Shown one piece after another: positions 11,876-46,325 of a DNA stretch of 64,000 nt. The position numbers were made by a program, and so were the translations under genes. The stretch is from a virus: positions 1-64,000 of IMG/VR virus record IMGVR_UViG_3300010885_061525, one strand, 5' to 3'. How positions within the stretch are numbered: position 1 is the stretch's first letter; the number at the start of each line of letters is the position of its first letter. A model generated the notes under the pieces. The model ran no database searches, was not told the origin of the DNA, and saw nothing but the letters and a program-made list of their open reading frames with translations.

Positions 11876-12103
11876 TCAAAAATTTTTCTCGAAGAACACA
11901 GATGGGCATTTACACACGTTATGTCTTAGAGTAATGTCACCCCAGTGAAAAATGTGATGTCCTTTTCTATATAAACAAACGGTTTTTTGATTTTGACATT
12001 CCTTGTAGTCCTTGCAGAATTTAGAGCATGGAGGATCTGGTGACGTATCATAAGAGATCACCTTTATCAATTTACTTAATTCGTTTTTTAATGAATTTTT
12101 CAT
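11876..12103 (-). CDS. Small Cys-rich protein (75 aa) with shared N-terminal leader
   Basis: Likely start ATG 12103 (MKNSLKNELSKLIK); six Cys; follows the 12120 gene on the same strand. Confidence 0.65.
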   Translation of the reverse strand: MKNSLKNELSKLIKVISYDTSPDPPCSKFCKDYKECQNQKTVCLYRKGHHIFHWGDITLRHNVCKCPSVFFEKNF

Positions 12104-12119
12104 AACATTTTTACTTTTA

Positions 12120-13235
12120 TTATCTTCGTCTTGAAGCGTTAGAGTTGGTGGTAGGGGTGGTTGAATTAGGCTTATAGTTGGCAGGAGGCATTCCTCCTGC
12201 AGGAAGAGTTCCGCCTCCGGGAGGGGTTCCTCCTCCGGGAGGGGTTCCTCCTCCGGGAGGATTTCCGTCCGGAGGAGTAGTGTCCTCGTCAGTAGAATTT
12301 CCTTCGTCAGTAGCATCACCGGTCGGAGTTCCGCATTGTAAATCTTTAACTTCACCTAGCAAAGTATCAATATAGCGGTCAGCGTCAATTCCTGCAGGCA
12401 ATATGCCTGCGGCGGTAATAACCCCTGCTAGAGCAGCGCGAGCAGCCGCTAAATCTACCAGTAGCGCTGCTCCTATAGTACCCCCACTAGCCGTATTAAT
12501 TGCTATGGCAGCTATTAGTGCGACTATCAATACTAAATAAGTAGAAATCTGATCAATAGTTTGCCAAGGCACGTTTGAAAATTTATTTCTTAAGTACAAG
12601 GTATATACAGCGGCGGAACTACAGAATTCTGCGCATGTCTTGGCTCCATTGTATAATCCATCTATTATTAGAGCTAGCGCTGCCATTGCAGCGCCAACTC
12701 CCTCTAAGCTCAGCTTCTGTCCTAGTGTAGCCCATTCGTCTTCAGTCAATAAATCCTCACCCACGTTAATCTTTAGAAGTTCAAGTATTTTCTCAGGATC
12801 ACAGCCCTGTCTATTCATCTCTGATAATATCTTCAATAACGAATTCAAAGCCTCGTCTATTCGTATCTTTTCATGTTTCCATAAAATATCTTTAAAATAT
12901 TGACGCATCCCGGGAATTTTTTCGCAACTTATGTTGATTATATGTTTTAAAGCCCCAGCAAGGTCTCCCGGACGCATAGGGATGTTACGACCGCTTTCAT
13001 AATCATGTATCAGCATGCGCTTCTCTTTCAATAAGCTCTCAAACAGATCAGCGCAACGTTTATTTGCTTTCCTCCATAGCACATAAAATAAAACAACTGC
13101 CGCACCGCCGTACCCCGCAATTAGCTGGACCCAAGGACTAGCCCACCAACTAGTGTCCTCTTGAATAACAATAGCGTTAATACTATTTATGAATCTTTGA
13201 GAAGCCAAGGAACGATTACTGTTATTAAATGCCAT
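12120..13235 (-). CDS. Leader-bearing helical membrane protein, paralog A
   Basis: Leader MAFNNSNRSLASQRFINSINAIVIQ; several hydrophobic helices; Pro/Gly tail. Confidence 0.8.
   Translation of the reverse strand: MAFNNSNRSLASQRFINSINAIVIQEDTSWWASPWVQLIAGYGGAAVVLFYVLWRKANKRCADLFESLLKEKRMLIHDYESGRNIPMRPGDLAGALKHIINISCEKIPGMRQYFKDILWKHEKIRIDEALNSLLKILSEMNRQGCDPEKILELLKINVGEDLLTEDEWATLGQKLSLEGVGAAMAALALIIDGLYNGAKTCAEFCSSAAVYTLYLRNKFSNVPWQTIDQISTYLVLIVALIAAIAINTASGGTIGAALLVDLAAARAALAGVITAAGILPAGIDADRYIDTLLGEVKDLQCGTPTGDATDEGNSTDEDTTPPDGNPPGGGTPPGGGTPPGGGTLPAGGMPPANYKPNSTTPTTNSNASRRR
12181..12276 (-). repeat. 18-nt tandem repeat encoding PPGGGT-like units
   Basis: Repeated ggaggggttcctcctccg and degenerate copies. 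Confidence 0.8.
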
Positions 13236-13240
13236 AAATA

Positions 13241-14314
13241 TTAACTCAACTTTCTATTAAAAATTTGTCTTGAAGCGTTAGAGTTGGTGGCAGGAGGGGC
13301 TTTCGGAGGAGGCATTCCTCCTCCAGGAGGAGTGTCATCTTCCTCTTCATCGGTGAAAATTGGCGCGCCTGCAGGAGGAGTGCCATCGTCACTAGTATCT
13401 ACGGCTCGACTTTCGCAACCTATATTGGCAGTTTGATCAAGCAAACTTTGAATAAATTCATCAGTGCTCATTCCATCAGGAACCATCTTGGCCGCCTCAA
13501 CCGCTGCAGAAAGTTGTCCTGTGGCCACAACTAAAAGTGCGGCTGCGCCTCCTACGGTGCCTATTACAGCGCCGGCTCTAACAAGTATATATAGCGCTGC
13601 GACTAATACAATAAGACCGGCAATAACCGATAGAATATCTATCGCAATATCTGGAAATATATTTTTCAAATAATTTGAGACCGCAGCTGCTCTGGAGCAT
13701 GCTCCAGAGCAGGTTTTTTGAAAGTCAAACCAGGCCTTGACCATCCAAGCGGCCAAACCAGCCACAGCAGCAGCTTCAGTCAAATTTTGTAACTTGTCAA
13801 GCTCCTTCCAATGCCCGGCGGGAACTCTATCCTTTGTCATGCTTTTAAGTCTATCAAGGATTTCCTTCATTGTACAACCTGCGTCCAAAGCTTGTTGTAT
13901 TACGTTTCCTACTCTGTTTACGAGGGACGCTCCCAGTTCCGGATTGGAGTAATTGCCAAACTCATCCAGTGGTCCCCTCAATTTATCCATATACTCACCA
14001 AGTCCCGTCCATGAAGTACATTTAATTAGTCGCATTTGCCCCGCCACAAAATTCAAAGCTTTGACCAATTTGTCAAGGGCTTTATCAGCATCTCCCTTCT
14101 TCGCCAAAATCTTGTTCAAAGCTTTGAGGCAGGGATCTTCCTGTCTCTGCCACAGCCGCCATGCAGCGCCTAATAATACAATTCCGGTCGTTAAGTTGGC
14201 TAGGCCCCACTCCCAACCATCCCAATCACCCCAATCCGGTTGAATAACAATAGCATTGATACTATTTATGAATCTTTGAGAAGCAAAGGAGCGATTGCTG
14301 TTATTAAATGCCAT
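13241..14314 (-). CDS. Leader-bearing helical membrane protein, paralog B
   Basis: Leader 24/25 identical to paralog A; shared KTCxxxCS and NSNASR. Confidence 0.8.
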   Translation of the reverse strand: MAFNNSNRSFASQRFINSINAIVIQPDWGDWDGWEWGLANLTTGIVLLGAAWRLWQRQEDPCLKALNKILAKKGDADKALDKLVKALNFVAGQMRLIKCTSWTGLGEYMDKLRGPLDEFGNYSNPELGASLVNRVGNVIQQALDAGCTMKEILDRLKSMTKDRVPAGHWKELDKLQNLTEAAAVAGLAAWMVKAWFDFQKTCSGACSRAAAVSNYLKNIFPDIAIDILSVIAGLIVLVAALYILVRAGAVIGTVGGAAALLVVATGQLSAAVEAAKMVPDGMSTDEFIQSLLDQTANIGCESRAVDTSDDGTPPAGAPIFTDEEEDDTPPGGGMPPPKAPPATNSNASRQIFNRKLS

Positions 14315-14478: not shown

Positions 14479-15513
14479 ATGAAAATAGCCTTTATTAATA
14501 ACTTCTACAATTCGGGCGGTTCAACGCAAACTGCTTATGCTTTAGCTGCCGAACTTTGTTCAAATAATCAAATGAGTTTCTACGGGTTTTGGGATGGTCC
14601 ATACAGAGATAAATTCCAAAAATTGGGCAAGGCAAATCTTTTAAAGACTTCTAAAATTTGTGATGGCACATTGGAATTTGAGTACGGTGACGATTTAATC
14701 GAAATGCTAGAAAAAGAAGATCCTGATATTATCCATATATTTTTACCGGGTTTCCAAAACCCAAAATACCTCCCAAAACTTCCGCAGAAAGCAAAAAAGT
14801 TTGTAACTGTATTATGCGAACAGGAGATAATATTTGATCCAAATTTCTTTGATAAGGTCTTTTTTCAATCAAAACACCAAATTAAATTTTGTAAAAATCC
14901 AGAGAATTCTATATGTGTTAGGCCCAGCATAGAACTTGACTTTTCGGAAAAACCTCAAAGTAAAAACCCCGTATTAGCGAGGGTTTCAGCGTTCTGCTCA
15001 TCAAAATTAGTAGATCATACAATGCAATGCGCTTTTAACTCCATGAGTAGCAAATGGATAATAGCAGGGGAGATACAAAGCGTGGAGACGTATGACCAAA
15101 TAATGCGTATTAAAGAAAGCAATAAATTAACCAATGTTGGAATTGTGGCTAATATAAACGAAAGTTTAAAACGCAAAATTATAAGTAATTGTGATATATG
15201 GCATTATCCAACTTCAGGAGAGGTTTTCTGTTTTTCCATTCTTGAAGCTTTTGCGGCCAGAAAGCCTGTCTTATCGTATAAGAACGCAGCCATTCCTGAG
15301 TTGTTTGACTCCGATGAATGGTTGGCAGACGATATTGATGACCTAATAGAAAAAACGGGCCGCTTAATAAGAACTCATCCGTCTGAAAGAGATCTTATAG
15401 GAAAAAATAACTATGGGCTGTATCTTAAGAACTCCCAGCAAATATTCGCTAATAATATCCTTAGTGAATATAAAAAGGCCATGTCTCGAACCCAATCGGC
15501 TCAGTTGCTATAA
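14479..15513 (+). CDS. GT4-type glycosyltransferase
   Basis: MKIAFINNFYNSGG; YPTSGEVFCFSILEAFAARKPV. Confidence 0.85.
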   Translation: MKIAFINNFYNSGGSTQTAYALAAELCSNNQMSFYGFWDGPYRDKFQKLGKANLLKTSKICDGTLEFEYGDDLIEMLEKEDPDIIHIFLPGFQNPKYLPKLPQKAKKFVTVLCEQEIIFDPNFFDKVFFQSKHQIKFCKNPENSICVRPSIELDFSEKPQSKNPVLARVSAFCSSKLVDHTMQCAFNSMSSKWIIAGEIQSVETYDQIMRIKESNKLTNVGIVANINESLKRKIISNCDIWHYPTSGEVFCFSILEAFAARKPVLSYKNAAIPELFDSDEWLADDIDDLIEKTGRLIRTHPSERDLIGKNNYGLYLKNSQQIFANNILSEYKKAMSRTQSAQLL

Positions 15514-15523: not shown

Positions 15524-17455
15524 ATGTATAAGAATAAAACGCTACCAACTCCGTATCAGCAGTTCATACATCTAAGTAGATATTCTAGATGGCTCTCAGA
15601 TGAAAAGCGAAGAGAAACATGGGAAGAGACTGTCGATAGATACTTTAACTTTTTTAAAGATCATCTCAAGTCTAATCATAGTTATAATTTAGATTCTAAA
15701 CTTGAAAATGAATTGCGTAACGCTATTCTCAATTTAGATATAATGCCAAGCATGCGGGCTTTAATGACAGCTGGTGAAGCTCTTAAAAGAGACAACACCG
15801 CTGGATATAACTGCTCATACGTCGCTGTAAATAATGTGCGCTCATTTGATGAGATCTTATACATACTGATGTGTGGAACCGGAGTTGGATTTAGTGTAGA
15901 AAGACAGTATGTTGAAAAGCTTCCAACAATTGCTGAAACGTTCTACATCTCTGATACGACTATCATTGTACAAGATAGTAAAGCTGGTTGGGCTAAATCG
16001 TTCAAGGAACTTGTCGCCCTACTTATTGGTGGGCAAATACCGAAGTGGGATCTCAGTAAGGTTCGTCTTGCTGGAGCGCGACTTAAAACTTTTGGTGGAA
16101 GAGCCTCGGGACCTGCTCCTCTTGATGACCTCTTCCGATTTACAATTGATGCTTTTAAAAAGGCTGCTGGAAGAAAACTCACTTCCATCGAATGTCATGA
16201 CATCGTTTGTAAGATTGCGGAAGTTGTCGTTGTTGGAGGTGTCAGAAGATCCGCTCTTATCTCTCTTAGTAATCTCACTGACGAAAGAATGCGAGACGCA
16301 AAAAGCGGAGCATGGTGGCACGAAAATCCACAACGCGCGCTTGCTAACAATTCAGTCGCCTATAAAGAAAAGCCTGAAATAGGAACGTTTATGGAGGAGT
16401 GGATCTCCTTATATAAAAGTAAAAGCGGAGAGCGAGGCATTTTCAATAGAGAGGCTTGCAAAAAAACCGTTGCTAAATTAGGCGACAGAAGAGATCCTAA
16501 TTTTGAATTTGGCACTAATCCATGTAGTGAGATTATTCTCAGAGACAAGGAGTTTTGCAACCTGTCAGAAGTCATAGTGAGAGCAAATGATACAGTTGAG
16601 ACACTAGCAAACAAAGTAAGATTGGCAACGATTCTTGGAACATTTCAGGCTTCGCTAACGTATTTTCCATATCTTTCAACCTCTTGGAAGAAAAACTGCG
16701 AAGAAGAGGCCTTGTTGGGAGTCTCACTTACAGGAATAACCGACAATGTCATGATGAGAGATTTAGAAACCATACCAAAAACATTGGATGATCTAAAAAA
16801 CATAGCCATATCGACCAATAAGTTCTTCTCAAAGGAGATTGGAATAAAGCAAGCCGCAGCTATTACCTGCGTAAAACCATCTGGAACAGTATCCCAACTT
16901 GTCGATGCTGCTTCTGGAATCCACGCTAGGCACAATAACTTCTATATAAGAACAGTTAGAGCCGACAAAAAAGACCCTCTGTGTAAAATGATGGTCGATG
17001 CAGGATTTCCATACGAGCCTTGTGTTTCTAAACCCGAGAACACTATGGTCTTTGCGTTCCCTACAAAATCGCCAGAAAAATGCATTACTAGAAATGACAT
17101 GACGGCTTTAGATCAATTAAAGCTTTGGGTTGCTTATCAAAGATATTGGTGCGAACATAAGCCTTCAGTTACTATAACTGTTAAAGAGCATGAATGGATG
17201 GAAGTAGGAGCATGGGTATACAGTCATTTTGATGAGATATCTGGAATATCATTCCTTCCTCACTCAGATCATTCATACAAGCAGGCTCCATATCAGGATT
17301 GCACGAAAGAGCAGTACGAAACAGCGCTTGCCAAAATGCCTAGCGGAATTGATTGGTCTAAACTTTCAGATTACGAATCTGAAGATAATACTAAGGGAAC
17401 TCAGACATACGCTTGCTCTGGTGATTCTTGTGAAGTTGTCGATTTATCAAACTAA
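15524..17455 (+). CDS. nrdJ: Class II (B12-dependent) ribonucleotide reductase
   Basis: YNCS, GTGVGFSVE, VVVGGVRRSALISLS, TNPCSEI, FCNL, VKPSGTVSQL, C-terminal ACSGDSCE. Confidence 0.95.
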   Translation: MYKNKTLPTPYQQFIHLSRYSRWLSDEKRRETWEETVDRYFNFFKDHLKSNHSYNLDSKLENELRNAILNLDIMPSMRALMTAGEALKRDNTAGYNCSYVAVNNVRSFDEILYILMCGTGVGFSVERQYVEKLPTIAETFYISDTTIIVQDSKAGWAKSFKELVALLIGGQIPKWDLSKVRLAGARLKTFGGRASGPAPLDDLFRFTIDAFKKAAGRKLTSIECHDIVCKIAEVVVVGGVRRSALISLSNLTDERMRDAKSGAWWHENPQRALANNSVAYKEKPEIGTFMEEWISLYKSKSGERGIFNREACKKTVAKLGDRRDPNFEFGTNPCSEIILRDKEFCNLSEVIVRANDTVETLANKVRLATILGTFQASLTYFPYLSTSWKKNCEEEALLGVSLTGITDNVMMRDLETIPKTLDDLKNIAISTNKFFSKEIGIKQAAAITCVKPSGTVSQLVDAASGIHARHNNFYIRTVRADKKDPLCKMMVDAGFPYEPCVSKPENTMVFAFPTKSPEKCITRNDMTALDQLKLWVAYQRYWCEHKPSVTITVKEHEWMEVGAWVYSHFDEISGISFLPHSDHSYKQAPYQDCTKEQYETALAKMPSGIDWSKLSDYESEDNTKGTQTYACSGDSCEVVDLSN

Positions 17456-29144: not shown

Positions 29145-30113
29145 ATGAAAGATAAAGACCTTTTTATTTTATTAAACGATATAGCCAATACTTCTAAGGC
29201 CTTTAAGCCGTTTGAAGGAAATCCGCCCCCAAATGTTGACCTGCCGGCAGATCATGGGATAGAAGATTTAATTCCTGCAGATGCAGATATAACCCCTGGA
29301 TGGTTACTACGATATGGTATAACTTTTTCTGGTGGGCCTCTATTAATTGTGCTGTTAATAAAAGGAATGAGAGCCAAAAAATGGACTAGTAAGATGATAC
29401 TAGATTGGCTTAAGAGGTACTTTTCTAATGATCCAACAAACCCAGGACAGTCTGATGAGTGTATGAGAAATCTTAAAGAATTAAACGATTACTTAAAAAA
29501 ACAGTCAACTGTTAATATGGGGGGAAATATACAGTTAGTTCTTGACTTTCTTAAAGCCGCACAATTACTTATTTCCCTTGTAATGAGTCAGTGCAACTTC
29601 ACGGATGATATGATAGAGCTGTTACTCCTTGGGTTTCTTTTAGAAAGACTCTTAGCCGCAGGTCTCACGGAAGCCCAAGCGAGAGCTTATATCAAATTAT
29701 ACGTAGAGTGGATTAGAAATGGTGCCAATGGACCTATGCCTACTCCGACAGGATCTTCTTCTGATCCTGAATGCGCCCCTGACGAAGAGAAAATAAAAGA
29801 GAAACTAAAAGATCGAGGGCTTATGGACGATATAGGAGAGGTGGCATGGAAAGCAGCCGTTCTTGCCGCAATAATAGCGTTAATCGCGTTAGTAGCTGGT
29901 ATTATTAGTGGATCTGGTGGAATTGGAACTCCTGCGACTATTCCTATAATTGCTCAAATTATCGCCTTGGCCGCTTTGATTGGGATTACTCTTTCAGAAG
30001 ATGACGTTCGTGCTATTTCTAGAGATGCCTCTGCTAACTGTCAACAGACAGGAGTAGATACTGGTGGCCCTGTTGAAGCTTTGGTCAAAAGACTAAAAAA
30101 TAGAAATAAATGA
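29145..30113 (+). CDS. Leader-bearing helical membrane protein, distant relative of 12120/13241
   Basis: Leader MKDKDLFILLNDIA; N-terminal TM, similar Cys spacing, C-terminal hydrophobic hairpin; GTGTAT at 29128-29133. Confidence 0.7.
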   Translation: MKDKDLFILLNDIANTSKAFKPFEGNPPPNVDLPADHGIEDLIPADADITPGWLLRYGITFSGGPLLIVLLIKGMRAKKWTSKMILDWLKRYFSNDPTNPGQSDECMRNLKELNDYLKKQSTVNMGGNIQLVLDFLKAAQLLISLVMSQCNFTDDMIELLLLGFLLERLLAAGLTEAQARAYIKLYVEWIRNGANGPMPTPTGSSSDPECAPDEEKIKEKLKDRGLMDDIGEVAWKAAVLAAIIALIALVAGIISGSGGIGTPATIPIIAQIIALAALIGITLSEDDVRAISRDASANCQQTGVDTGGPVEALVKRLKNRNK

Positions 30114-30125
30114 ATGACGAGATTT

Positions 30126-30160: not shown

Positions 30161-30181
30161 ATAAGTGTATTTATTCGTAAG

Positions 30182-32601: not shown

Positions 32602-32632
32602 TTTATTTACCCTTTGCGCTCCGTTATACCAA

Positions 32633-33187
32633 CTATAAAGTACGCCGCACAACTTCCCAAGCTACTCGGGGAAAAGCTCCTAAAGGATCGAAAATATTCG
32701 CGGCAGGTGGATTTATTAAAGGAGGTTTGGGTGCTAGCGTAACACATTTACCGATACAATCCATCATTTTTTGGGTGCCGCTTTGGTATCCTAGATTAGA
32801 ACAGTGAATCCAGCATTCCGCATAATTTGCAGATGCCCAAAAATTTGGACAATTGAGTGCCGCAGTTGCCACTGTATCTATCCCGCTAACATCCGAGCCT
32901 CTACTTAATCCCAAGTGGCGAAAACAGTAAGTTGTTATCCACTTGAGATGTGCATCCCACCCATCCCTACTAGTTACCAAATCAGTAGCCTGATCCAAAA
33001 GATCGTGAATACAGTTACAATATTTTCGAGTCCTTTCTTGTCGAGTTGTCCCTGAGGGAGTTATTTGGAAGTCCATGTCATCATTTATTTCATAATTCGG
33101 GTGGGTGGGCGGTGTTTTTTGTTGGACCGAAGCTCGATCAGCTCCGCTAATTTTATTAAGTACTCTTTTTAAATTATCATTATTCAT
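32633..33187 (-). CDS. Leader-bearing 8-Cys protein, copy 1
   Basis: MNNDNLKRVLNKISGADRASVQQKTPP; start ATG 33187. Confidence 0.8.
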   Translation of the reverse strand: MNNDNLKRVLNKISGADRASVQQKTPPTHPNYEINDDMDFQITPSGTTRQERTRKYCNCIHDLLDQATDLVTSRDGWDAHLKWITTYCFRHLGLSRGSDVSGIDTVATAALNCPNFWASANYAECWIHCSNLGYQSGTQKMMDCIGKCVTLAPKPPLINPPAANIFDPLGAFPRVAWEVVRRTL

Positions 33188-33218
33188 TTTATTTACCATT
33201 TGTACTCTGTTTCCCTAA

Positions 33219-33758
33219 CTATAAAAAACGCCGTTGAAGATGCCAAAGTATTCGGGGATAATCGCTTAAAGGATCGAAACCATTCGTGGGGGGTACATAG
33301 TATGGAGGTAAGGGTCCTAGCTCAACACATTTACCGACACATTTTGTAAATTTTGAGCTTGATCTTATGTATCCTAGATTTTCACAGTGAATCTCGCATT
33401 CCACATAAGTTTCCATCGACCGAAACCATGAACAAACGTGTCTCGCAGCTGCCACTGTATCTATCCCGTTGTATACAACATCATATCCGGGACGAAATAG
33501 GTGGGGAATACAGGAAGTTGTTATCGACTTTAGCTGTGCATCCCACCCCTCTGTCGTAGCAGTAGCATTATTCATAAGACCGTAAAGACAGTCACAAAAT
33601 TTTTCAATTCTTTGTTTTTCAGTTGGAATCTCTGTGGGAGTTATTTGGAAGTCCATGTCATCATTTTGTTCATATCCAGGTGGTGTTTTTTGTTGGACCG
33701 AAGCTCGATCAGCTCCGCTAATTTTATTGAGAACTCTTTTTAAATTATCATTATTCAT
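33219..33758 (-). CDS. Leader-bearing 8-Cys protein, copy 2
   Basis: Identical 27-aa leader; same Cys frame. Confidence 0.8.
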   Translation of the reverse strand: MNNDNLKRVLNKISGADRASVQQKTPPGYEQNDDMDFQITPTEIPTEKQRIEKFCDCLYGLMNNATATTEGWDAQLKSITTSCIPHLFRPGYDVVYNGIDTVAAARHVCSWFRSMETYVECEIHCENLGYIRSSSKFTKCVGKCVELGPLPPYYVPPTNGFDPLSDYPRILWHLQRRFL

Positions 33759-33795
33759 TTAGCGTTCCTTTACGCCATCTCTGATAGTACCATTA

Positions 33796-34176
33796 TCAAG
33801 CATGGTAGGGCAATGGGTGTTCAAGACATCCTCTAACACATGTGTTGAGGTCCGGATTGGTTGTGAATCCTCTGTTAATACATCTAAGCCTGCACTGTGC
33901 CAAACGAAGCGTATAATCAAGATTTGGGCATTTTAATTTAGCAAAAGCTAAGGAGTCTACAGTTTCTGGCGCGGAATAGTTATTGGTTTTTAAACATTCA
34001 CTTGTTATCTGCCTGACAACTTTTTCGTCTCTCAGAGTTTCCAAATCTTGACTTAGGAAATTTTTACGTATCTTACTTATACCCACGTACACACAGTCGC
34101 AATAGTTTGAAATTTGAAAAGTTGACTGATCGATGCCGCTAATTTTATTGAGTATTCTTTTTAAATTATTATTCAT
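33796..34176 (-). CDS. Leader-bearing 8-Cys protein, copy 3 (divergent)
   Basis: MNNNLKRILNKISGID; same Cys frame; start ATG 34176. Confidence 0.75.
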   Translation of the reverse strand: MNNNLKRILNKISGIDQSTFQISNYCDCVYVGISKIRKNFLSQDLETLRDEKVVRQITSECLKTNNYSAPETVDSLAFAKLKCPNLDYTLRLAQCRLRCINRGFTTNPDLNTCVRGCLEHPLPYHA

Positions 34177-34435
34177 TTTTAGATCCAAGTGAAAGTTGAT
34201 CTTCTGTCTTGCTTAGGACGTCTCCAGGACTAAACGTAGCCCCATTGTTTGCGACCTTATAATGTATTACGTATCCAGAGTTATTACCTAACTCCTCAAT
34301 CCTCACCACCTCTCCCATACTTCCGTAATGTATACATTTTTTATTAGTGTTAACCACTATATCCCCAATCCTAAAGCCCTTATAGCTAGAGATTGTGTAT
34401 CTGAGGAGTTTATTTATCGCTTCTTTTAAGGACAT
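34169..34435 (-). CDS. Leader-bearing SH3/KOW-like small phage protein
   Basis: Start ATG 34435 MSLKEAINKLL; FRIGDIVVNTNKKCIHYGSMGEV. Confidence 0.65.
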   Translation of the reverse strand: MSLKEAINKLLRYTISSYKGFRIGDIVVNTNKKCIHYGSMGEVVRIEELGNNSGYVIHYKVANNGATFSPGDVLSKTEDQLSLGSKNE

Positions 34436-34450
34436 TTTACAAATCCACAA

Positions 34451-34460
34451 GTGTATACAC
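34451..34460. promoter_or_regulatory. Palindromic GTGTATACAC between divergent genes
   Basis: Reads GTGTAT on both strands between ATG 34435(-) and ATG 34465(+). Confidence 0.6.
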
Positions 34461-34464
34461 ATAT

Positions 34465-35076: not shown

Positions 35077-35084
35077 AATAACCC

Positions 35085-35741: not shown

Positions 35742-35815
35742 AACCAATCCCCAATGCTTGAATGATTTATTAGACGAGTTTGGATTAACAATGAATTATG
35801 AAGCTGGAAAAATAA

Positions 35816-36355
35816 ATGAATAATTTTAAATATGCTTACGAAAGAATAGTAAACAAAACAGAGGCTTTCGATAACACTGATAGAGATTTAATATTTTCTA
35901 AAGTTTTATCGTTATTTAACGGAGGTTCTGTAGATATTTTTCAGGTTGGAGCGATAGAAACCTTTGATGAGAGATGGAGATATGGATCAGGATGGTCCGA
36001 TATAATCTTTGGCAATTATATAAAAAATAATGGAGGATCTCTAACCATTTGCGACATTCATTTAGATAATATAGCAAATAGTTATTTCGCGGCATCTCAT
36101 ATGGGTTATAAAATTAACTTTGAGTTAGCAGACGCAGGAGAAATAATCTCAGGAAAAGACTACGATATCTACTACCTAGACGGTGGTAACGATCCTAATG
36201 AAACCGAAAAGCAATTTAATAGTATTACAGCAAAAAAATGCGCGGTAATTATTGACGATCTTTTAATCAAAGGAGTTACTCTGATGGATAACATTGATTT
36301 TAATCATAAATACAAAGTAGCCAATGGAGTAGGCTTAATTCTTAAGGGTTTTTAA
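35816..36355 (+). CDS. SAM-dependent methyltransferase-like protein
   Basis: IFQVGA, YDIYYLDGG, VIIDD. Confidence 0.6.
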   Translation: MNNFKYAYERIVNKTEAFDNTDRDLIFSKVLSLFNGGSVDIFQVGAIETFDERWRYGSGWSDIIFGNYIKNNGGSLTICDIHLDNIANSYFAASHMGYKINFELADAGEIISGKDYDIYYLDGGNDPNETEKQFNSITAKKCAVIIDDLLIKGVTLMDNIDFNHKYKVANGVGLILKGF

Positions 36356-38361: not shown

Positions 38362-38555
38362 TGTCTAATAAATACTTAACAGAATTTCTCTCATTCTTAG
38401 ATAAGGAGGGGCTTTTAAAAAGGCCCCTCTCTTTTAATGAGATAATCGATAAATTTCAAAACAAAGCTACTGCTAGCACAAACATAAAGGCGCCAACAGG
38501 ATATGCAGGATTCACAACAGGAAAATCGGAAAAAAAGAGTACTTCTGGTAACTGA
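38361..38555 (+). CDS. Small hypothetical protein
   Basis: TAATG-coupled to ssb. Confidence 0.45.
   Translation: MSNKYLTEFLSFLDKEGLLKRPLSFNEIIDKFQNKATASTNIKAPTGYAGFTTGKSEKKSTSGN
38406..38435 (+). terminator. Probable intragenic terminator after ssb
   Basis: GAGGGGC...GCCCCTC hairpin followed by TCTTTT. Confidence 0.5.
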
Positions 38556-40185
38556 ATTTAGTCAATTAAATACCGGGTTCTCAGTAATGGCTAATGATAT
38601 TCTCATCGCCATGCATAATAGCGGTAAGTACGAAGTAGCGGAATTGGCTTCCTACTTAGAGGACGGTTCCCCAAGGATCAATTCTGTTCCTTGGAAGGTC
38701 TATCCTGTAATACCGTCAGACCCAAAAGAGAATCAAGAATACCAGCAAAACTATAGAACATCTCAATTTGGAAGTCACAGATTTGATAAGGCTGTTATAG
38801 ATTTCAAACCTGATGTCGTATTTTCATACCGAGATTTTTGGCATGATGAATGGATAACAAAATCGGCATCAAGATATCTTTTTAATTACGTCTGGTCTGC
38901 TTGTATAGATTCTGAACCTCCAAAAGTTGATTGGATGGGAATATATTCAACAGTAGATAGAATGACCTCATACACAGATTGGGGAATGTCCGTTCTAAAG
39001 AAATACTCTGGACGGCAGCTCAAAATGGCCGACACCAACACTATGCCAGGTGTAGATCAAAATGTCTTCAAGCCAATTAAAAAGAGTGATGCTAGACATT
39101 CATTAGGAATCAAAGATGACATCAATGTAGTATTAACAGTGATGAGAAATCAACCAAGAAAGCTTTTTCCTGATCTTATGTTTGCGTTTTCTAAAACATT
39201 AGAAACGTGGAACGACCTTGGTCGAACTGATCTAGTAGATAATACATATCTGTACTTACATACCAGTTATCCAGATGTTGGTTTTGATATTGGAAAAGAC
39301 ATATTAAAGTATAAGCTGTCTTCAAAGGTTTTGATGACGTATTGTTGTAATCATTGCCATGCGTATTTTGCCTCGTTTTTCAACGGGGAAATTTGCGCAT
39401 GCAATAATTGCGGAAACTTCACCGCCCATCCCCCAAACACAGCCATGGGTCTTACAAGAGAGCAGTTGGCTGTAGTATATAATACCGCCGATCTTTACGC
39501 TCAACTAAGCATTGCCGGCGCTCTAGAGATTCCATTGATAGAAGCTAAGGCTTGCGGAATTCCTACAATAGCCACCGACTACGCTGCTATGCATGAAATA
39601 AACTCTCTTGGAGGATCGTATGGAAGCATCAAAGTTTCAGCGTGGAGAGAGGAGTCAGATAAGGAGACAGGTCAAATCAGAGCAATGCCTGATCCAATTG
39701 ACTGCTCTAAAAAGATCGCTGATTTCTTCATGGAGTCAAAATCCTTTAAAGAACAACTTTCAATTGATGCATTAAATACAGTCAAGCGACATCATTCTAA
39801 CGAAGAGACGTATAATAAATGGGACAAAATATTCGATTCAATGCCCTTTCTACCTGATGATAGATGGTATAAAAAACCAAATGTGATCGATACGAGCAAG
39901 ATAGACTTGAACATCGCTTATAATGATGAAGATTTTATCAATTATTTAGTTTTTAATTTTACCCCTCCAAAGGCTGCGCTAAGAGCTTTTGCTGCAAGAA
40001 AAGAGTTGTCTGCAGCCCTAAAGACTAAGATTAAAACGGAAAATAATGCAGCTAGAAAATTGAATAGGTCTGATATAGTAACAGCTGTAGTACAAACTGC
40101 TCATCAGTTTAATGCTTTTGAGCAATTCAGATACGGCGTGGTTAACAAGATTAAAAACAAAATTGATATGGTGGAGGTGGTATGA
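38503..40185 (+). CDS. GT4 glycosyltransferase with Zn-ribbon insertion
   Basis: TGFS, VMRNQPRK, CNHC...CNNC, LEIPLIEAKACGIPTIATDY. Confidence 0.85.
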   Translation: MQDSQQENRKKRVLLVTEFSQLNTGFSVMANDILIAMHNSGKYEVAELASYLEDGSPRINSVPWKVYPVIPSDPKENQEYQQNYRTSQFGSHRFDKAVIDFKPDVVFSYRDFWHDEWITKSASRYLFNYVWSACIDSEPPKVDWMGIYSTVDRMTSYTDWGMSVLKKYSGRQLKMADTNTMPGVDQNVFKPIKKSDARHSLGIKDDINVVLTVMRNQPRKLFPDLMFAFSKTLETWNDLGRTDLVDNTYLYLHTSYPDVGFDIGKDILKYKLSSKVLMTYCCNHCHAYFASFFNGEICACNNCGNFTAHPPNTAMGLTREQLAVVYNTADLYAQLSIAGALEIPLIEAKACGIPTIATDYAAMHEINSLGGSYGSIKVSAWREESDKETGQIRAMPDPIDCSKKIADFFMESKSFKEQLSIDALNTVKRHHSNEETYNKWDKIFDSMPFLPDDRWYKKPNVIDTSKIDLNIAYNDEDFINYLVFNFTPPKAALRAFAARKELSAALKTKIKTENNAARKLNRSDIVTAVVQTAHQFNAFEQFRYGVVNKIKNKIDMVEVV

Positions 40186-41282
40186 AAAAAATAGCTTATA
40201 TATCAGTATATAGAGATGGAACTGGCTACGGAAATGCTGCAATATCGATGATCAAAGCTATCGATAAGGCCGGTATAGATATTGTCCCAATTTGGCTAAG
40301 CCTGAACATGTTCCCATTAAAAAATACAGAGAGAATTTCCGAGCTAGAGAAGGGGAGTTTGGATGGAGTGTCTACGGTAATCCAACAATCTCTTCCTGAC
40401 ACGTTTGTTAGGATAGAAGGGGTAAAGAATATAGGATATTTCTTTTGGGAAACTGATAGCTTCGTAGGATCTGGTTGGAAAAGCGGGTGTGAGTTAATGG
40501 ATGAGATTTGGGTTACTACTGAAGAGCAGAAGGAGGCATGCGTTGCCTCTGGAGTCGATCCATTAAAAATACGCATTGTAGATCAACCTAAAGAGCTAAC
40601 GAAATCAGAACACAAGTTTGACTTCAAAAAGTATGGATTAGAAAATACTTTCAAATTTTATACTATATCTGATTATTCAAACAAGAAAAATATTAATGGG
40701 CTGATGCATAGTTTCCTAACCGAATTTTCGATATATGACAACGTCTCTTTAACAATTAAAGCTTATATAAGTTCAAGACCTCCAATTGAAAGTAAAAATC
40801 ATATTAAATCAACTATTCAAGAACTTAAAAAACAGATAGGAAAGCCTGATCATGTATATCCAAAAATTGCTATCATAACTGATATGCTGTCTGAAAATGA
40901 TTTATCGGGATTGGAAAACTCTTGCGACTGCTTTGTTTCTTCATCTCGCGGTGAAGGGGAAGGTCTTCCTATGGTTCAATCAGCATTAAAGGGGAAGCCA
41001 GTAATAGCTTCATGCATATCTGGAATTTCCAAAAATTTTAAAAACAAGGGACTGTTAATCAAAAACCTAATTAAAAAGAAGGTTTTCGGAATGAATAGCG
41101 GAGCATACTACAACTACAACGAAAATTGGCTAGACCCATCTACTACAGATATAGCTGATAAAATGCGCTATGTCCTAGAAAATCCAAACGAAGTACAAGA
41201 GATAGTCAAAGAGAATAAAGAGTATATAGAAGAGAACTTCTCAATAGAAGCCTGCGCAAAGAAACTGGCGGAAATACTATGA
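40182..41282 (+). CDS. GT4 glycosyltransferase
   Basis: GTGYG, FFWETD, SSRGEGEGLPMVQS...GKPVI. Confidence 0.85.
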   Translation: MKKIAYISVYRDGTGYGNAAISMIKAIDKAGIDIVPIWLSLNMFPLKNTERISELEKGSLDGVSTVIQQSLPDTFVRIEGVKNIGYFFWETDSFVGSGWKSGCELMDEIWVTTEEQKEACVASGVDPLKIRIVDQPKELTKSEHKFDFKKYGLENTFKFYTISDYSNKKNINGLMHSFLTEFSIYDNVSLTIKAYISSRPPIESKNHIKSTIQELKKQIGKPDHVYPKIAIITDMLSENDLSGLENSCDCFVSSSRGEGEGLPMVQSALKGKPVIASCISGISKNFKNKGLLIKNLIKKKVFGMNSGAYYNYNENWLDPSTTDIADKMRYVLENPNEVQEIVKENKEYIEENFSIEACAKKLAEIL

Positions 41283-42298
41283 ATCCTATTAGTTATATAA
41301 GCAATAAAATAAACAGAGTTAAAAAAGATAAATATAAAATCTTGACTTTTTCTACGCATGAAGCGTATCAAGAGGCCATGGCTAAAACCGGGCATCATTT
41401 CTACCTTCTTCAGACTGAAGGCTGCAAACAATGGAATGAGGATTTTAGAAAACTCCCAAGTAATTGCACTATTATTAATAATATAGAACATATACCGTAT
41501 GATATAGATTTTCTACTATCACAAGAGAGATACTCACAGCTGCAGAAAATGAGCGGATTATCTAATCATATTAGACTTCCATTGATACATTTAGACCATG
41601 TCGAACCCGTAAAAAACGAATCGTTTCCCGCGCTAAAAGCACTCAAAGCTGACTTCAACGTCTTTATAACAGAGCATAATAAGGAAAGCTGGGAAAATAC
41701 TGATGGAGTTGTTATATCTCATGGTATTAATACTGATACATTTTCGGGTTGGATTCCTAATACGTCTAAAACAGTTGTCTATATAGTCAATTACCTCAAA
41801 GAGAGAGATTTTTTCTGCGGATGGAAGGAGTGGGAATACATTAAAAATAAAGTAAACGCAATAGATCCTACGATAAAGTTTAAGTTGATAGGAGACAATC
41901 CTGGAATAAGTAAGACTATATCTGATCCAAAAGAGCTTGCTCTTGAATTAAAAAAATGCGCCTGTTATATCAACACGTCTAAATTCTCCCCTGTTCCAAT
42001 GTCTCTTCTTGAAGCTATGTCGTGCGGTATGCCGATAGTATCTACTAAACATCAACAAGTGGCTAAGCTTTTAAATGAGTCGAATTCAATATCATCTAAT
42101 GATTTAGATCAATTAGCAGATGGGATCGTTAATGTATGCAATAACAACAAACTTTATAAGAGCATTGGTGTTAATGCTAGAAATGAAATATTGAACAAGT
42201 TTTCAATGGAATCGTTTATGAATAACTGGAACGACATTTTCGATAAAGCCTATAATAAAAGACTTGGTGAATTAAATGAAATATTTTATAACAAATAA
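41279..42298 (+). CDS. GT4 glycosyltransferase
   Basis: HGINTDTF; SPVPMSLLEAMSCGMPIVS. Confidence 0.85.
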   Translation: MNPISYISNKINRVKKDKYKILTFSTHEAYQEAMAKTGHHFYLLQTEGCKQWNEDFRKLPSNCTIINNIEHIPYDIDFLLSQERYSQLQKMSGLSNHIRLPLIHLDHVEPVKNESFPALKALKADFNVFITEHNKESWENTDGVVISHGINTDTFSGWIPNTSKTVVYIVNYLKERDFFCGWKEWEYIKNKVNAIDPTIKFKLIGDNPGISKTISDPKELALELKKCACYINTSKFSPVPMSLLEAMSCGMPIVSTKHQQVAKLLNESNSISSNDLDQLADGIVNVCNNNKLYKSIGVNARNEILNKFSMESFMNNWNDIFDKAYNKRLGELNEIFYNK

Positions 42299-42686
42299 AG
42301 AAGAAACGTATTTAGATTTTATAAAGATCACATCTGATGATTTTAAAAGTCTAAAGGAAAAAACTATTGAAGAAATTTTTGTGGCTAGCGGGACTTTTGA
42401 ATCTATCAAAGATCCAAGCTCACTAATTGAAGATATCAAAAAGGCAACAGATAATAAGTGTAAAATTGCATTAAATTTTATAAATATATATCAATTGTTT
42501 GTAGATGTAGCTTTTCATAGAACTGACATTGGTATTGGTCATTTAGTTTGCAGAAGCATGGAGAATCCATTTAATGTGAATGCTGCATCTTCCTTTGTTA
42601 AAAAGTCGGGGCTAAAAATAATTAGAACCAACCTAGAGGAAAATTCAAAATTTATCAGAATTGAGTGTGTTAATGAGTGGGAATAA
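42276..42686 (+). CDS. Hypothetical protein
   Basis: Coupled ORF within the GT cluster. Confidence 0.5.
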   Translation: MKYFITNKEETYLDFIKITSDDFKSLKEKTIEEIFVASGTFESIKDPSSLIEDIKKATDNKCKIALNFINIYQLFVDVAFHRTDIGIGHLVCRSMENPFNVNAASSFVKKSGLKIIRTNLEENSKFIRIECVNEWE

Positions 42687-43386
42687 AAAAAATATATCTG
42701 TTATAATTACAACGTATAATGAAGAAAAATTCATAGCTGAAGCTTTAATGAGCGTTGTTAATCAAACGCTGAATCCATTAAATTTTGAAATAATCGTTGT
42801 AGATGATGGAGGGACTGATAATACGGATAAAGTTCTAAACAGTCTTAAGAAAGAGCATAATCTATCCTTTCGATACATGAAAAAGAAAAATGGAGGAACC
42901 GCATCTGCTCGTAATTTCGGCGTAGCAAACTCCACAGGGGAGTTTATAGCCTTCTTAGATGGCGACGACTCATATCTTCCTAACAAGCTGGTTAGTTCAG
43001 CTAGATTCATGGCTAAAGGCGGAAATATAGGAATTGTATATTCTGATTATATAGAAAAACACAGTGATAAATCTAACTATAGACTTAAGCAAAATTTCGA
43101 TAGAGATAAACTATTTAGCGAATGTATAATTTCCACCAACTCTATGGTCAGAAGGAGTGCTTTAGAGAAAGTTGGAGGCTTAGATGAGACATTCAAATAT
43201 GTGGAAGACTATGATCTTTGGTGTAGAATTGTCATGTCTGGATATTTTGCATTGAGAGTTCCAGAGCCTCTTTTTGTCTATAATTCACACGCTGCTAGCA
43301 AAACAAACTCAACAAATTTTGATAAAATCAACCCCGAATGGGCAAGAATAAGAGAAAGAATTTCAAAAAATGAATGGCATATCTAA
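42673..43386 (+). CDS. GT2 glycosyltransferase
   Basis: ISVIITTYN, VVDDGGTD, NGGTASARNFG, FLDGDD, EDYDLW. Confidence 0.92.
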   Translation: MSGNKKNISVIITTYNEEKFIAEALMSVVNQTLNPLNFEIIVVDDGGTDNTDKVLNSLKKEHNLSFRYMKKKNGGTASARNFGVANSTGEFIAFLDGDDSYLPNKLVSSARFMAKGGNIGIVYSDYIEKHSDKSNYRLKQNFDRDKLFSECIISTNSMVRRSALEKVGGLDETFKYVEDYDLWCRIVMSGYFALRVPEPLFVYNSHAASKTNSTNFDKINPEWARIRERISKNEWHI

Positions 43387-43888
43387 CGCTAATCCTATCC
43401 AAGACACGTTTTTAATTGGATCTAGATTCCCACAGACAAAATCTATAGCTGTTCTTTTAGACTCTTGTCGATCTCAAGAGTACTATGAATTATCTCAATC
43501 TATCTTTAGTAAAGAGGCTCATCAATACGATATAGCCATATTTTCATCAGACAACAATTCTCCTATCTTGATGCCTCCTTGTGGACTTTATTACTATAAC
43601 TATCTAGAGAATTACAGCGGAAGCGTTTTAGCCGTAACTGTAAGAGGGGCTGTCAATGCAATGGATTGTGGAGCTATCTTTGATAAAAAGGTTTGGCATA
43701 TATCGGATATATCAGATTTTTCCCAATTGGGAGTTACTCTTGATAATCTTTTTGACTTTTTTGATAATATAGTTTTCGTAAATAACTTCGTGAAAAAATC
43801 ATTTTTTAGTATATATAAAAATACGAGTGATGCAAAAACTTCAATCTCCGAAATGGATATAATCTCTCTAGAAACATATTTCCTATGA
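43370..43888 (+). CDS. Hypothetical protein
   Basis: Coupled ORF. Confidence 0.5.
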   Translation: MNGISNANPIQDTFLIGSRFPQTKSIAVLLDSCRSQEYYELSQSIFSKEAHQYDIAIFSSDNNSPILMPPCGLYYYNYLENYSGSVLAVTVRGAVNAMDCGAIFDKKVWHISDISDFSQLGVTLDNLFDFFDNIVFVNNFVKKSFFSIYKNTSDAKTSISEMDIISLETYFL

Positions 43889-44685
43889 AAAAAGAAGAAC
43901 TTATTGCCTTTATAACCCAAAATGGCGGTCATACAGAAATCGATATCTCAAAACTAAAGTTAAGTGAACTAAAGGAGATCAAGAATCAAATCGAAATAAA
44001 TAAAGAGCCTCAAAGCAATCACCCAGTGTCTGAATTTGACGAAGGATGGTCTGACTTTGTAATGAGCAACTTTTCAGAAAAAGAGCTAAGAGATAGCATG
44101 CCTACCTGCGATGGTCTTAGAAGAGTGTTTAAAAAATTAATTGGGGATATAACTCAGTGTTCAATGGATGTAATTAAAGCTCCAACCACTACAGATCAAA
44201 CCGCTACAGTATCATGTCACATATCATATGTTAAACATGGCTCTTCTAAGAGTAGAAGTATCAGCGATGCTTTTGATGTTAATCAAGACAATACACCGTG
44301 GCCTTATTGTAAATCAAGTGTTGGAACAGCAGCGACAAAGGCTGAGGCTAGAGCTTTGCGAAAAGCCCTTGGTCTAGTTAAAGTTTACTCAGCTGAAGAG
44401 GTGCAAGAGGGTCTTAATTCTGATGAAATGCAGAACTCGTCTCCTGACGCTAATCGACCAATCTCAGACAGTGCCAAGATTGCTATCAACACTATGTGCA
44501 ATCGTTTGTCTGTCAAGCCTTCCAAATTATTCAAATTTATGGGGGTAGAAAAAGATGACGTTTCACATTTGAGCTACGCAGAATCACATTCGGTTTTAGC
44601 TAAATTAAACGCCTTCACAAGAGGAGAGATGAATGGCGGAGAGTCAGTTCCTGATGGAATCAAATCATCGGAGATAATATTCTAA
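43885..44685 (+). CDS. Putative ssDNA-annealing protein (Rad52/Sak-like)
   Basis: TAATKAEARALRKALGL helix after a beta meander. Confidence 0.5.
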   Translation: MKKEELIAFITQNGGHTEIDISKLKLSELKEIKNQIEINKEPQSNHPVSEFDEGWSDFVMSNFSEKELRDSMPTCDGLRRVFKKLIGDITQCSMDVIKAPTTTDQTATVSCHISYVKHGSSKSRSISDAFDVNQDNTPWPYCKSSVGTAATKAEARALRKALGLVKVYSAEEVQEGLNSDEMQNSSPDANRPISDSAKIAINTMCNRLSVKPSKLFKFMGVEKDDVSHLSYAESHSVLAKLNAFTRGEMNGGESVPDGIKSSEIIF

Positions 44686-45179
44686 TGCAAGACAAAAAAT
44701 ACAATCCTGCTTATAAGATATATAAGCCAAATCCAAAAGATACGAGCAAGGGTTCTGCTACATCTTGGGAATACAATCCCTCCACAAAGAATTTCTTCTT
44801 AACGATTGCTAAACAGAGTGAAGCAAAAGACGATTCTGGAAATGCCACATTTAAATGGAAGGATGATTCTGAGACTGTAAAACTTGATCTCGAAGAGTTG
44901 TCTGAGATAATGTTGGTTATTAGTAATAATAAATCACATCTTGGTTCTTCTGACGGTCAGACTCAAAAAGGAAAGGGTCTGTTTCATCAGACTAAGGACG
45001 GCAATACTATAGTTAAACTCTATCAAATAGATGGTGATAATGGTATTACATTTGGACTAGAAATAAGTTCTAAGAAATCAGATAAACTTTTTTGGTCAGG
45101 GCAAAGAATAACCCCAGCCGAAGCTGGGGTCATCTCGCAAATATGCTCTTTTTGCATCAAAGATATAATTTTTTACTGA
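44685..45179 (+). CDS. Putative Whirly/PC4-like ssDNA-binding protein
   Basis: YKIYK..KGSA, FLTIA, FKW....VKLDLEEL, LFH, ITPAE. Confidence 0.55.
   Translation: MQDKKYNPAYKIYKPNPKDTSKGSATSWEYNPSTKNFFLTIAKQSEAKDDSGNATFKWKDDSETVKLDLEELSEIMLVISNNKSHLGSSDGQTQKGKGLFHQTKDGNTIVKLYQIDGDNGITFGLEISSKKSDKLFWSGQRITPAEAGVISQICSFCIKDIIFY
45103..45130 (-). terminator. Intrinsic terminator for the - strand operon, inside the convergent gene
   Basis: - strand ACCCCAGC-TTCG-GCTGGGGT-TATTCTTT (cUUCGg loop), about 40 nt past stop 45173. Confidence 0.7.
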
Positions 45180-45568
45180 TCCATATAACCGGCGTCGTTT
45201 TCCATGGTAGTATCAAGATTGGACGAGTCTAAGCTCATCGGATCAACTCCTTCGACCCCCTCAACCTCTCCGGGTTCTTCCACCTCTGAATTTTCACTCT
45301 TCATATAATCTGTAGCCGACGATATATAATCAGCGGCCAGTGTTATTTTTGACTGTATCCATTCAGGAAGATCAGCTTCCTCCATGATCATGTCATGAAG
45401 TTCTTGGGCATTTCTAATAATAGATCTGAGATCTGATTTAGCCATACCCCCTTCTCCTCCAAGTTCGTCATTGTTTGACGAAGTATCTGGAGCTAACACT
45501 GGCGCCATTAGCTCAGTAGAGTCCATCGCCGCACGTAACTTATTTAGTAATTTTATTTTATTTTTCAT
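45173..45568 (-). CDS. Leader-bearing conserved phage domain protein
   Basis: MKNKIKLLNKLRAA; EGGMAKSDL...LPEWIQSKITLAADYI motif recalled from large phages. Confidence 0.7.
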   Translation of the reverse strand: MKNKIKLLNKLRAAMDSTELMAPVLAPDTSSNNDELGGEGGMAKSDLRSIIRNAQELHDMIMEEADLPEWIQSKITLAADYISSATDYMKSENSEVEEPGEVEGVEGVDPMSLDSSNLDTTMENDAGYMDQ

Positions 45569-45569
45569 A

Positions 45570-46325
45570 TTAGAATCCGCAGAATAAACTATTTGACATT
45601 TGTCTGATTGGTGACGTAATGGTAGGATGCGCAGTTTTACAAGCTCTTACAGAAGCGCTGTATTGAGAGCATAAATTCTTCAATTTAGTGTCAACGTCTG
45701 AGCAATTCATACTAGGTTGTTGAGAACAGAATTGTGTTACTATTCTTTCTAAGCCTCTCAATAATTCTCTTTCTACATTGCAATAACATGAATATGCATT
45801 TATACTTTCTGCGCTACCAGGCTCAGTAGGAGTGGTATTTGCCATAGCGCATAAACTATCGACTGCCGAGCATCTATTTCTAAGCCAATTATTTACGATT
45901 GCTTGCAATTTCTTTCTGCAACGATCTAATGGATCAGAAGCGGGCATAGGGCTTGATCCCACATTCATTGCGTTCAAACATCTTGCCCATGGAATCTTAT
46001 TAATAGTGCAACCATTTGTAGGTTCTACTGAAGTGGGTCTTTGGCCCCCACATCTGCTAGTTTCGCACGGTCCCTCACCAACCTGGGCTGTACGATTCGG
46101 AAAGTGTACAGAATCCATTTTCTGATTGCACATTTGTTGTAGTTCATTTCCCGAAATAATGGAGTCCGCAGTACTTAGATTGGTACAACTTACGTAAGAA
46201 CCATCGCGCTCTCTTATGCAGCAGTGTGATACGACGCTATAAACGTAAGGCCCTTCTATCGCTGGTTGCACGAAGGCCGCAGAAGCTCTCATCAATTTAT
46301 CAAGTATTACATTTAATTTATTCAT
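45570..46325 (-). CDS. Leader-bearing 18-Cys protein
   Basis: Start ATG 46325 (ATGA overlap), MNKLNVILDKLMRAS; 18 Cys in 251 aa. Confidence 0.7.
   Translation of the reverse strand: MNKLNVILDKLMRASAAFVQPAIEGPYVYSVVSHCCIRERDGSYVSCTNLSTADSIISGNELQQMCNQKMDSVHFPNRTAQVGEGPCETSRCGGQRPTSVEPTNGCTINKIPWARCLNAMNVGSSPMPASDPLDRCRKKLQAIVNNWLRNRCSAVDSLCAMANTTPTEPGSAESINAYSCYCNVERELLRGLERIVTQFCSQQPSMNCSDVDTKLKNLCSQYSASVRACKTAHPTITSPIRQMSNSLFCGF

Follow-up and report, generated by a model that had tools for sequence, protein, structure and literature searches.

The first 64 kb of a 90,574-bp viral contig (G000; IMG/VR record IMGVR_UViG_3300010885_061525), hereafter the window, contain a group of genes whose products begin with a similar short, basic, amphipathic helix. 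Five features of this leader were observed: it is a shared N-terminal module, it is selected at the peptide level, it is restricted to one clade, the payloads behind it are swapped, and it occurs in a late-strand and late-promoter-like context. Based on this late context and the precedents of phages T4 and P1, we tentatively interpret the leader as a portable helix that docks or addresses proteins for incorporation into the virion, an interpretation that we hold at somewhat less than an even chance. The contig is classed as linear and is about 58% complete. By terminase, 56 related loci were identified in IMG/VR; of the relatives, G001 (122 kb) and G002 (125 kb), both complete and bounded by terminal repeats, were used whole.

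In the original prediction, ten window genes were grouped under one leader with the consensus L-x-x-[ILVF]-[LI]-[NDS]-K-[IL]. All ten N-terminal peptides quoted there were found at the given gene starts, and the Cys counts of 6, 8, and 18 reported for the payloads were correct. As a single ten-member set, the group did not hold together: five genes had a clear leader, two had a loose one, and three had none (Table 1; window genes are named by the coordinate of their start). The strict consensus fitted 33187, 33758, 34176, and 46325 and did not fit the other six genes. It was also present at one gene past the window (genome 84061-84789), and five N-terminal matches were obtained versus none in the 25,977 internal positions of 113 open reading frames (ORFs). 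The clear form of the leader was described as M-x(1-6)-hydrophobic-x-[KR]-L-x-x-A, followed by a linker rich in Pro, Ala, and acidic residues. When the strong members were aligned on their core, they followed hydrophobic-L-[NDSE]-[KR]-[LI]-x-x-A-[ML], with hydrophobic residues at i, i+3, i+4, i+7, i+10, and i+11, and were continued by a Pro-, Ala-, Gln-, or acid-rich stretch and a usually Cys-rich body. The net charge of the leaders was +2 to +4, and their helical hydrophobic moments were 0.43-0.79 (mostly high), other N-termini having 0.44 +/- 0.13. Within residues 19-55 of the leader proteins, P, S, T, G, D, E, Q, and N together accounted for 0.41-0.73 of the positions versus 0.46 +/- 0.09 in other ORFs, and the Cys content was 4.3% in the leader-gene payloads versus 1.5% in other ORFs. 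For counting, a minimal core was defined as [ILV]-x-[KR]-[LI] at residues 3-12.

Judged from their sequences, 33187, 33758, 34176, 46325, and 45568 are solid members. The 34176 protein was 24-27% identical to its paralogues 33187 and 33758, and the homologues of the 45568 payload in G001 and G002 also had a leader-like N-terminus. In a word-based search of 5.8 billion clusters, the 46325 payload had only two close homologues, and a second payload had only three. Two genes, 34435 and 12103, are plausible leader genes. The 34435 orthologues in G001, G002, and locus L010 kept a leader-like N-terminus with payloads 52-58% identical, and one relative matched SH3_13 (E=0.004); homologues of the 12103 peptide were looked for in G001 and G002, and none was found. 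The leader is not the same in 13235, 14314, and 29145. The N-termini of 13235 and 14314 failed tests with a position-specific scoring matrix (PSSM), a hidden Markov model (HMM), and the minimal core, and that of 29145 failed the core and PSSM tests. By eye, these three N-termini recall membrane-type proteins in G002. Further carriers were found beyond the window on the same contig, at genome positions 82831, 84061, 84795 (weak), 85380, and 86203, on the structural strand upstream of the terminase.

Table 1. Leader genes and associated features. Coordinates are those of the window unless marked as genome coordinates.
Feature	Position	Strand	Remarks
8-Cys protein, 184 aa (33187)	32633..33187	-	Leader MNNDNLKRVLNKISGADRASV, then Pro-rich linker; strict consensus
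8-Cys paralogue, 179 aa (33758)	33219..33758	-	27-residue N-terminus identical to that of 33187; strict consensus
8-Cys paralogue, 126 aa (34176)	33796..34176	-	Leader MNNNLKRILNKISGID; strict consensus
18-Cys orphan, 251 aa (46325)	45570..46325	-	Leader MNKLNVILDKLMRASAAF; variable slot after tail genes
Acidic 131-aa protein (45568)	45173..45568	-	Leader MKNKIKLLNKLRAAMDS; slightly wider pattern; rank 2 when left out of the PSSM
88-aa SH3-like protein, first gene of unit C (34435)	34169..34435	-	Looser leader MSLKEAINKLLRY; minimal core only
75-aa 6-Cys peptide (12103)	11876..12103	-	Looser leader MKNSLKNELSKLIKVIS; minimal core only, PSSM score 4.9
Two membrane-type paralogues, 371 and 357 aa (13235, 14314)	12120..14314	-	Own N-terminus MAFNNSNRS.ASQRFINSINAIV
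322-aa membrane-type protein (29145)	29145..30113	+ (replication strand)	Start MKDKDLFILLNDIA; weak resemblance only
Conserved 72-aa protein	46322..46540	-	C-terminal hydrophobic segment; heads the variable slot
GTGTAT	46566..46571	-	25 nt before the 46540 start
GTGTAT, other window leader units	14323; 29128; 34455	-; +; -	
B12-dependent ribonucleotide reductase	15524-17455		
Large terminase (TerL)	genome 77257-79281		Beyond the window
670-aa protein	genome 73171-75183 (L001:9171-11183)		Between portal and capsid genes

The leader is a real but fuzzy feature with lineage-specific subtypes. When a PSSM was built with one family left out at a time, the left-out leader ranked 1, 2, 3, 3, and 5 among about 26,000 positions for five of the six families, and that of the sixth, the 8-Cys family, fell outside the top six. 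An HMM search of N-termini against controls, which had been proposed as a check, favored the leader: at a matched threshold, the seed HMM hit 48 of 1,363 N-termini versus 29 of 8,356 internal 30-mers. On iteration, the model was drawn to about 14 redundant N-termini of portal proteins and did not pick up the MSLEKSIQKL subtype, so its result (32/1,363 versus 1/8,356) was not used as a clean figure. The minimal core, expected at about 3-4% from its internal frequency, was present in 12 of the 49 late-strand ORFs of this contig versus 2 of the 59 on the other strand (Fisher p=0.0013). The corresponding counts were 13/58 and 7/119 in G001 (p=0.002) and 7/54 and 9/129 in G002, where no significant bias was observed (p=0.25). 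Among relatives with TerL at least 60% identical, 57 of the 378 unique ORFs around TerL had the core; in a sister clade (TerL 35-38% identical), it was found in 3 of 196. One of the subtypes, MSLEKSIQKLTQVIQAA, belongs to the G001/G002 lineage. A degenerate DNA pattern for the MSLEKSIQKLT leader was found in seven loci only, all of one lineage, indicating that the tag is not widespread.

The claim that the leader is more conserved than the payload among paralogues was supported by codon comparisons. The first 27 codons of 33187 and 33758 differed by four synonymous and no non-synonymous changes, and the whole proteins were 56% identical; the first 25 codons of 13235 and 14314 differed by four synonymous changes and one non-synonymous change, with an overall identity of 30%. 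Among four orthologues of the 84061 protein (49-97% identical), M1, K2, N5, L8, K10, and L11 were kept and the linker gained gaps. The leader is under purifying selection at the peptide level. An mRNA-level element was also considered and was dropped, since the codons differ between families.

The view of the leader as a portable N-terminal module on unrelated payloads also stood. The payload families had no blastp match to one another, and the leader was kept at a syntenic slot with differing payloads. Only 3 of 16 queries had counterparts in G001 or G002. The leader was found fused to Hydrolase_2, Phage_lysozyme, and DUF5856, domains that occur without it elsewhere. In G001, five tandem genes share MSLEKSIQKLTQVIQAA before mutually unmatched payloads; three of them are preceded by GTGTATAAT and the fourth by GTGTATAAA, and the fifth has neither element nor hairpin. 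Before two of the element-bearing genes (L066:7030-7100 and 7570-7640), a G+C-rich terminator-like hairpin with a T run is followed by GTGTATAAT, which makes them self-contained, moron-like cassettes. At another site of G001 (78999-82557; L069:18999-19952, L070:942-1703, and neighbors), four leader proteins are encoded at the position of the membrane-paralogue island of the window. These four proteins share a Cys-rich C-terminal module, GACC.P.GEFGGF.C ... GG.NCG, which has no family match.

A Pfam scan of 50 leader proteins of the relatives identified Hydrolase_2 in four, Phage_lysozyme in two, and an SH3 domain in one, and 43 had no match; the 50 were chosen by eye from 100 core-positive ORFs for an Ala/Pro continuation or late-strand location, and the other 50 were left out. 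The leader was found on two unrelated peptidoglycan hydrolase types, in different lineages. The 84061 protein is probably a remote Hydrolase_2 member: 29 of its 30 ESM Atlas hits were in Hydrolase_2 at 0.93, and weak profile matches to TIGR02869 (E=0.048) and 4f55 (E=1.2) were obtained. A six-frame search with PF07486 did not pick up this hydrolase, so that the assignment rests on the ESM Atlas features and the weak TIGR02869 and 4f55 matches. In the 84795 protein, a leader and acidic linker spanning 68-85 residues precede DUF5856 (E=1e-14), which also matched Dps weakly. Comparison of the ten window payloads with Pfam and PHROG gave nothing above noise, and five further carriers, ten G002 candidates, and ten G001 proteins yielded only DUF5856 and a sub-threshold lysozyme match. 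The only payloads that could be given a putative name were the two unrelated peptidoglycan hydrolase types and the Dps-like domain.

A variable slot was identified after the tail genes, between a conserved protein of 69-72 residues and a convergent conserved gene cluster. The slot was compared in G000-G002 and in the nine of ten related loci that reach it (L073 ends before it). The 72-residue protein was located upstream of the slot in these nine loci and in G002, whereas G001 had no called ORF at that place. The first slot gene of each of the nine loci had a leader-like helix at its start, and its payload ranged from 88 to 274 residues with 0-20 Cys. In L076 and L077, a second, acidic slot gene begins with a looser helix that fails the core.

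The hexamer GTGTAT had been proposed to head all units with leader genes, and nine of the ten genes had been placed on the strand opposite the replication genes. Both statements were confirmed: GTGTAT was located 8-25 nt before the first ATG in all four units, and nine of the ten genes were on the structural-gene strand. Of the 35 GTGTAT sites in this contig, 17 had a start no more than 40 nt downstream, and the figures for G001 and G002 were 29 of 65 and 28 of 47; for 59 permuted hexamers, the median was 1 in this contig and 1-2 across the three genomes. It also preceded the portal gene, the gene after the portal, the minor capsid gene, and tail genes, as well as a few genes on the other strand. 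GTGTAT resembles a promoter used with very short 5' leaders or none, common to head, tail, and leader genes. Its presence before both leader units and particle genes makes the leader genes look co-regulated with particle genes. GTGTAT, often as GTGTATAAT, was seen 7-26 nt before many starts, including 47901 and genome positions 67746, 73144, 75199, 77245, 85367, and 87009 (L001/L002).

Consistent with the original prediction, inspection indicated that the leader is not a Sec or Tat signal: a charged or polar residue every 2-3 positions breaks each leader, and neither a hydrophobic core nor a twin-arginine (RR) motif was present. A double-glycine bacteriocin leader was dropped, as S-G-A occurs only in 33187 and 33758, and a signal-arrest-release endolysin anchor was dropped, as the leader is not hydrophobic. 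By eye, many leaders of the G000 lineage have small-x-E a few residues past the helix, and those of the G001/G002 lineage run directly into A-P-x-P. A 670-residue protein encoded between the portal and capsid genes scored 20.6 bits against Pfam Peptidase_S7 (cut-off 20). In the ESM Atlas, 27 of its 30 hits were to YonD_N at 0.90 with 133 shared features only, and Peptidase_S77 was at rank 23. Its first 275 residues form a widespread domain with 1,284 relatives, in which a His and a Ser were invariant in 30 aligned sequences; a profile of this domain had no match in PDB, Pfam, or PHROGs. The 670-residue protein is possibly a candidate prohead protease fused to a scaffold.

The protein encoded after the terminase is presumably the portal (L061, G002 49781-51418; L066, G001 15662-17296; about 14 other loci; L001, genome 75249-77219). 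The portal of the G001/G002 lineage has an N-terminal segment, GLNKLG[RK]AMA, that was matched by the leader HMM (E 0.007-0.2). The segment is less pronounced in the present contig, and the L010 lineage lacks it.

The leader was compared with known address peptides. In T4, the 10 residues of the capsid-targeting sequence (CTS) suffice for packaging, including that of foreign proteins, and the internal proteins differ from one another except in this tag (PMC9026906; PMC3012670). The prohead protease removes the CTS by cutting at a short consensus with a terminal Glu, L/I-x-E (PMC9026906). Like the CTS of IPI, IPII, IPIII, and Alt, the leader is a short N-terminal peptide on diverse fast-evolving proteins that are encoded at variable loci and expressed with head genes. 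Unlike the CTS, the leader is a basic, amphipathic peptide with a [KR]-L core, a long flexible linker comes after it, and L/I-x-E is not consistently present. The payloads here are Cys-rich and include wall hydrolases, and the gene order, with a 2,878-aa ORF without a family match in the place of the tape measure, points to a phage with a long tail and no relation to T4. In P1, the N-terminal ~30 residues of DarB suffice to bring a reporter into the capsid (PMC9024508). The two systems are alike in that an N-terminal segment would direct a protein into the capsid; that of DarB, however, has been described for one protein in the stepwise Dar assembly and not as a tag on at least a dozen unrelated proteins.

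Multi-spike phages have conserved N-terminal docking peptides on interchangeable receptor-binding proteins or tailspikes. One short N-terminal plug attached to the particle with many different heads would be common to both arrangements, whereas the payloads here are enzymes and small Cys-rich domains and not recognizable tail fibers or depolymerases. In encapsulin systems, a short, conserved peptide with a flexible linker is present on diverse cargo, frequently ferritin-like, and binds inside an HK97-fold shell. The leader resembles it as a conserved peptide with a flexible linker on diverse cargo, including a Dps-like (DUF5856) payload, whereas encapsulin peptides are usually C-terminal with another consensus, and the shell here would be a DNA-filled phage head. 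Targeting peptides of encapsulin cargo are named in PMC10960027. The open-access literature yielded T4, giant-phage, P1, P22, and encapsulin work only; neither this clade nor the motif was found there, which cannot establish it as unpublished.

In the mechanism that we propose, the leader would be a portable basic amphipathic N-terminal docking helix of about 12-18 residues with the core hydrophobic-x-[KR]-L-x-x-A, and the flexible Pro/Ala/acid-rich linker would tether it to interchangeable payloads. As the particle assembles, the helix would bring fast-changing late proteins to a single shared partner; most of these proteins are disulfide-type Cys-rich orphans, and the phage's peptidoglycan hydrolase and a Dps-like protein are also among them. 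The tagged proteins would then exit the cell with the virion, packed in its head in the manner of T4 internal proteins or attached to that head. We infer that there is a common partner and that it is a virion or procapsid component. The payloads look extracytoplasmic, yet they have no Sec or Tat signal; since lysis would free such proteins untagged, the tethered helix seems best explained as a docking piece. A more specific proposal, in which the helix is an address code of its own for this whole clade of uncultured freshwater long-tailed phages that loads rapidly exchanged Cys-rich proteins, the hydrolase, and the Dps-like protein into or onto the particle, and in which the portal N-terminal segment may share the scaffold site, is rather doubtful.

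Several observations weigh against virion incorporation. Some internal segments scored as high as certain leaders with the PSSM, and in an unbiased all-against-all comparison, the N-termini of G000 and G001 exceeded three control segments only about twofold and those of G002 not at all. No sequence likeness to the T4 CTS was seen by inspection, the T4 peptide being not basic and without the hydrophobic-x-[KR]-L-x-x-A core. Inspection also gave no uniform cleavage motif after the helix, and the prohead protease is a weak lead. Since sequence likeness is absent and the cleavage and protease features are equivocal, the leader was classed as working like the T4 CTS and not as a member of that system. 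No other peptidoglycan hydrolase was found in six-frame searches of G000, G001, and the complete G002 with seven Pfam families, so the leader-bearing hydrolases, as the only recognizable ones, may be endolysins, which need not be packaged. No cultured relative of the phage was found either: megablast of 30000-36000 against a phage collection and tblastn with the capsid protein gave no match, and tblastn with TerL gave remote matches only (24-28% identity). With no close or moderately close match in these searches, there is no cultured relative with virion proteomics.

A common partner might not exist at all, and the leaders might be generic short amphipathic helices, serving self-association or membrane grazing, that arose through paralogy, cassette duplication together with the promoter, and A/T-rich codon preference. 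The pairwise similarity between families is weak (scores 30-37) and occurs also in control segments, and internal look-alikes exist; a generic heptad regular expression was not enriched in G001 or G002, tandem copies have common upstream DNA, and the leader subtypes vary by lineage, all as such an origin would predict. However, the early-strand genes of the same A/T-rich genome are nearly without the core (2/59 versus 12/49), and so is the sister clade (3/196). The polar positions ([NDSE]-[KR]-L, with Ala three residues on) recur across unrelated payloads, the leader changes are synonymous without replacement, and two unrelated hydrolase families gained the leader independently. We consider an origin without a common partner unlikely.

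We consider it quite unlikely that the leader is instead an export or lysis-coupling signal, which would hand hydrolases and disulfide-rich proteins to a phage-encoded Sec-independent route involving the 69-72-residue membrane protein or a chaperone. Such a role would fit the presence of the leader on the sole recognizable wall hydrolases, no other hydrolase family having been found, as well as the Cys-rich payloads, the small protein with a C-terminal hydrophobic segment that always precedes the variable slot, and the genes adjoining unit C, which are i-spanin- and o-spanin-like by inspection. A chaperone-type export precedent is reportedly provided by Gp1 and LysA of mycobacteriophage Ms6. 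Lysis, however, frees everything anyway, and extracellular action needs no tag; moreover, the largest leader island, located before TerL, has no membrane-protein neighbor, the Dps-like, acidic, and SH3-like payloads are not periplasmic-looking, and to our knowledge no known translocon recognizes such a helix. It is improbable that the leader is a handle for modifying enzymes, similar to the leaders of ribosomally synthesized and post-translationally modified peptides (RiPPs), with glycosyltransferase-like products acting on the Ser/Thr/Pro-rich linker or the Cys-rich body. Glycosyltransferase-like genes lie beside three of the four window islands (14479, 30182, and 38503-44685), and the convergent cluster adjoining the variable slot is conserved in relatives. 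The glycosyltransferase label, however, comes from inspection of N-terminal sequences, the island before TerL has no such neighbor, and the payloads of 75-330 residues are far above the typical RiPP core size.

If the helix is a virion address, tag-directed packaging as known from T4 and P1 would also operate in uncultured lake phages of an unrelated group. Orphan Cys-rich proteins, dozens of them, would be flagged as particle cargo or decoration, and the helix would offer a handle both for identifying what is delivered or displayed by these phages and for the loading of foreign proteins. If it is an export or lysis signal instead, it would represent a new phage route for moving wall hydrolases out of the cytoplasm. 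For the pattern of shared N-terminal tags on unrelated phage genes, the leader genes are a concrete case to test.

On the minus strand, the terminase is followed by a long block of structural genes, including those for the capsid protein (genome 71519-72580), an XM1-gp53-like minor capsid protein (genome 72606-73124), and a tail-fiber-like protein. One lake-water metatranscriptome library contained five contigs of only 153-331 nt that were 100% identical to parts of unit C (31395-34834), which are too sparse as a sign of its transcription. A 143-residue protein with an N-terminal hydrophobic segment is encoded at 31841-32272 (minus strand), followed by an 89-residue protein with a lipoprotein-like start, MKKIRICLMLMLFGCSG, at 31575-31844 (minus strand). 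The two look like an i-spanin/o-spanin pair, which suggests a Gram-negative host; in G002, a spanin-like pair is located after the portal gene instead. The genes adjoining the leader islands at 14479-15513, 30182-31246, and 38503-44685 appeared glycosyltransferase-like by inspection of their N-terminal sequences.

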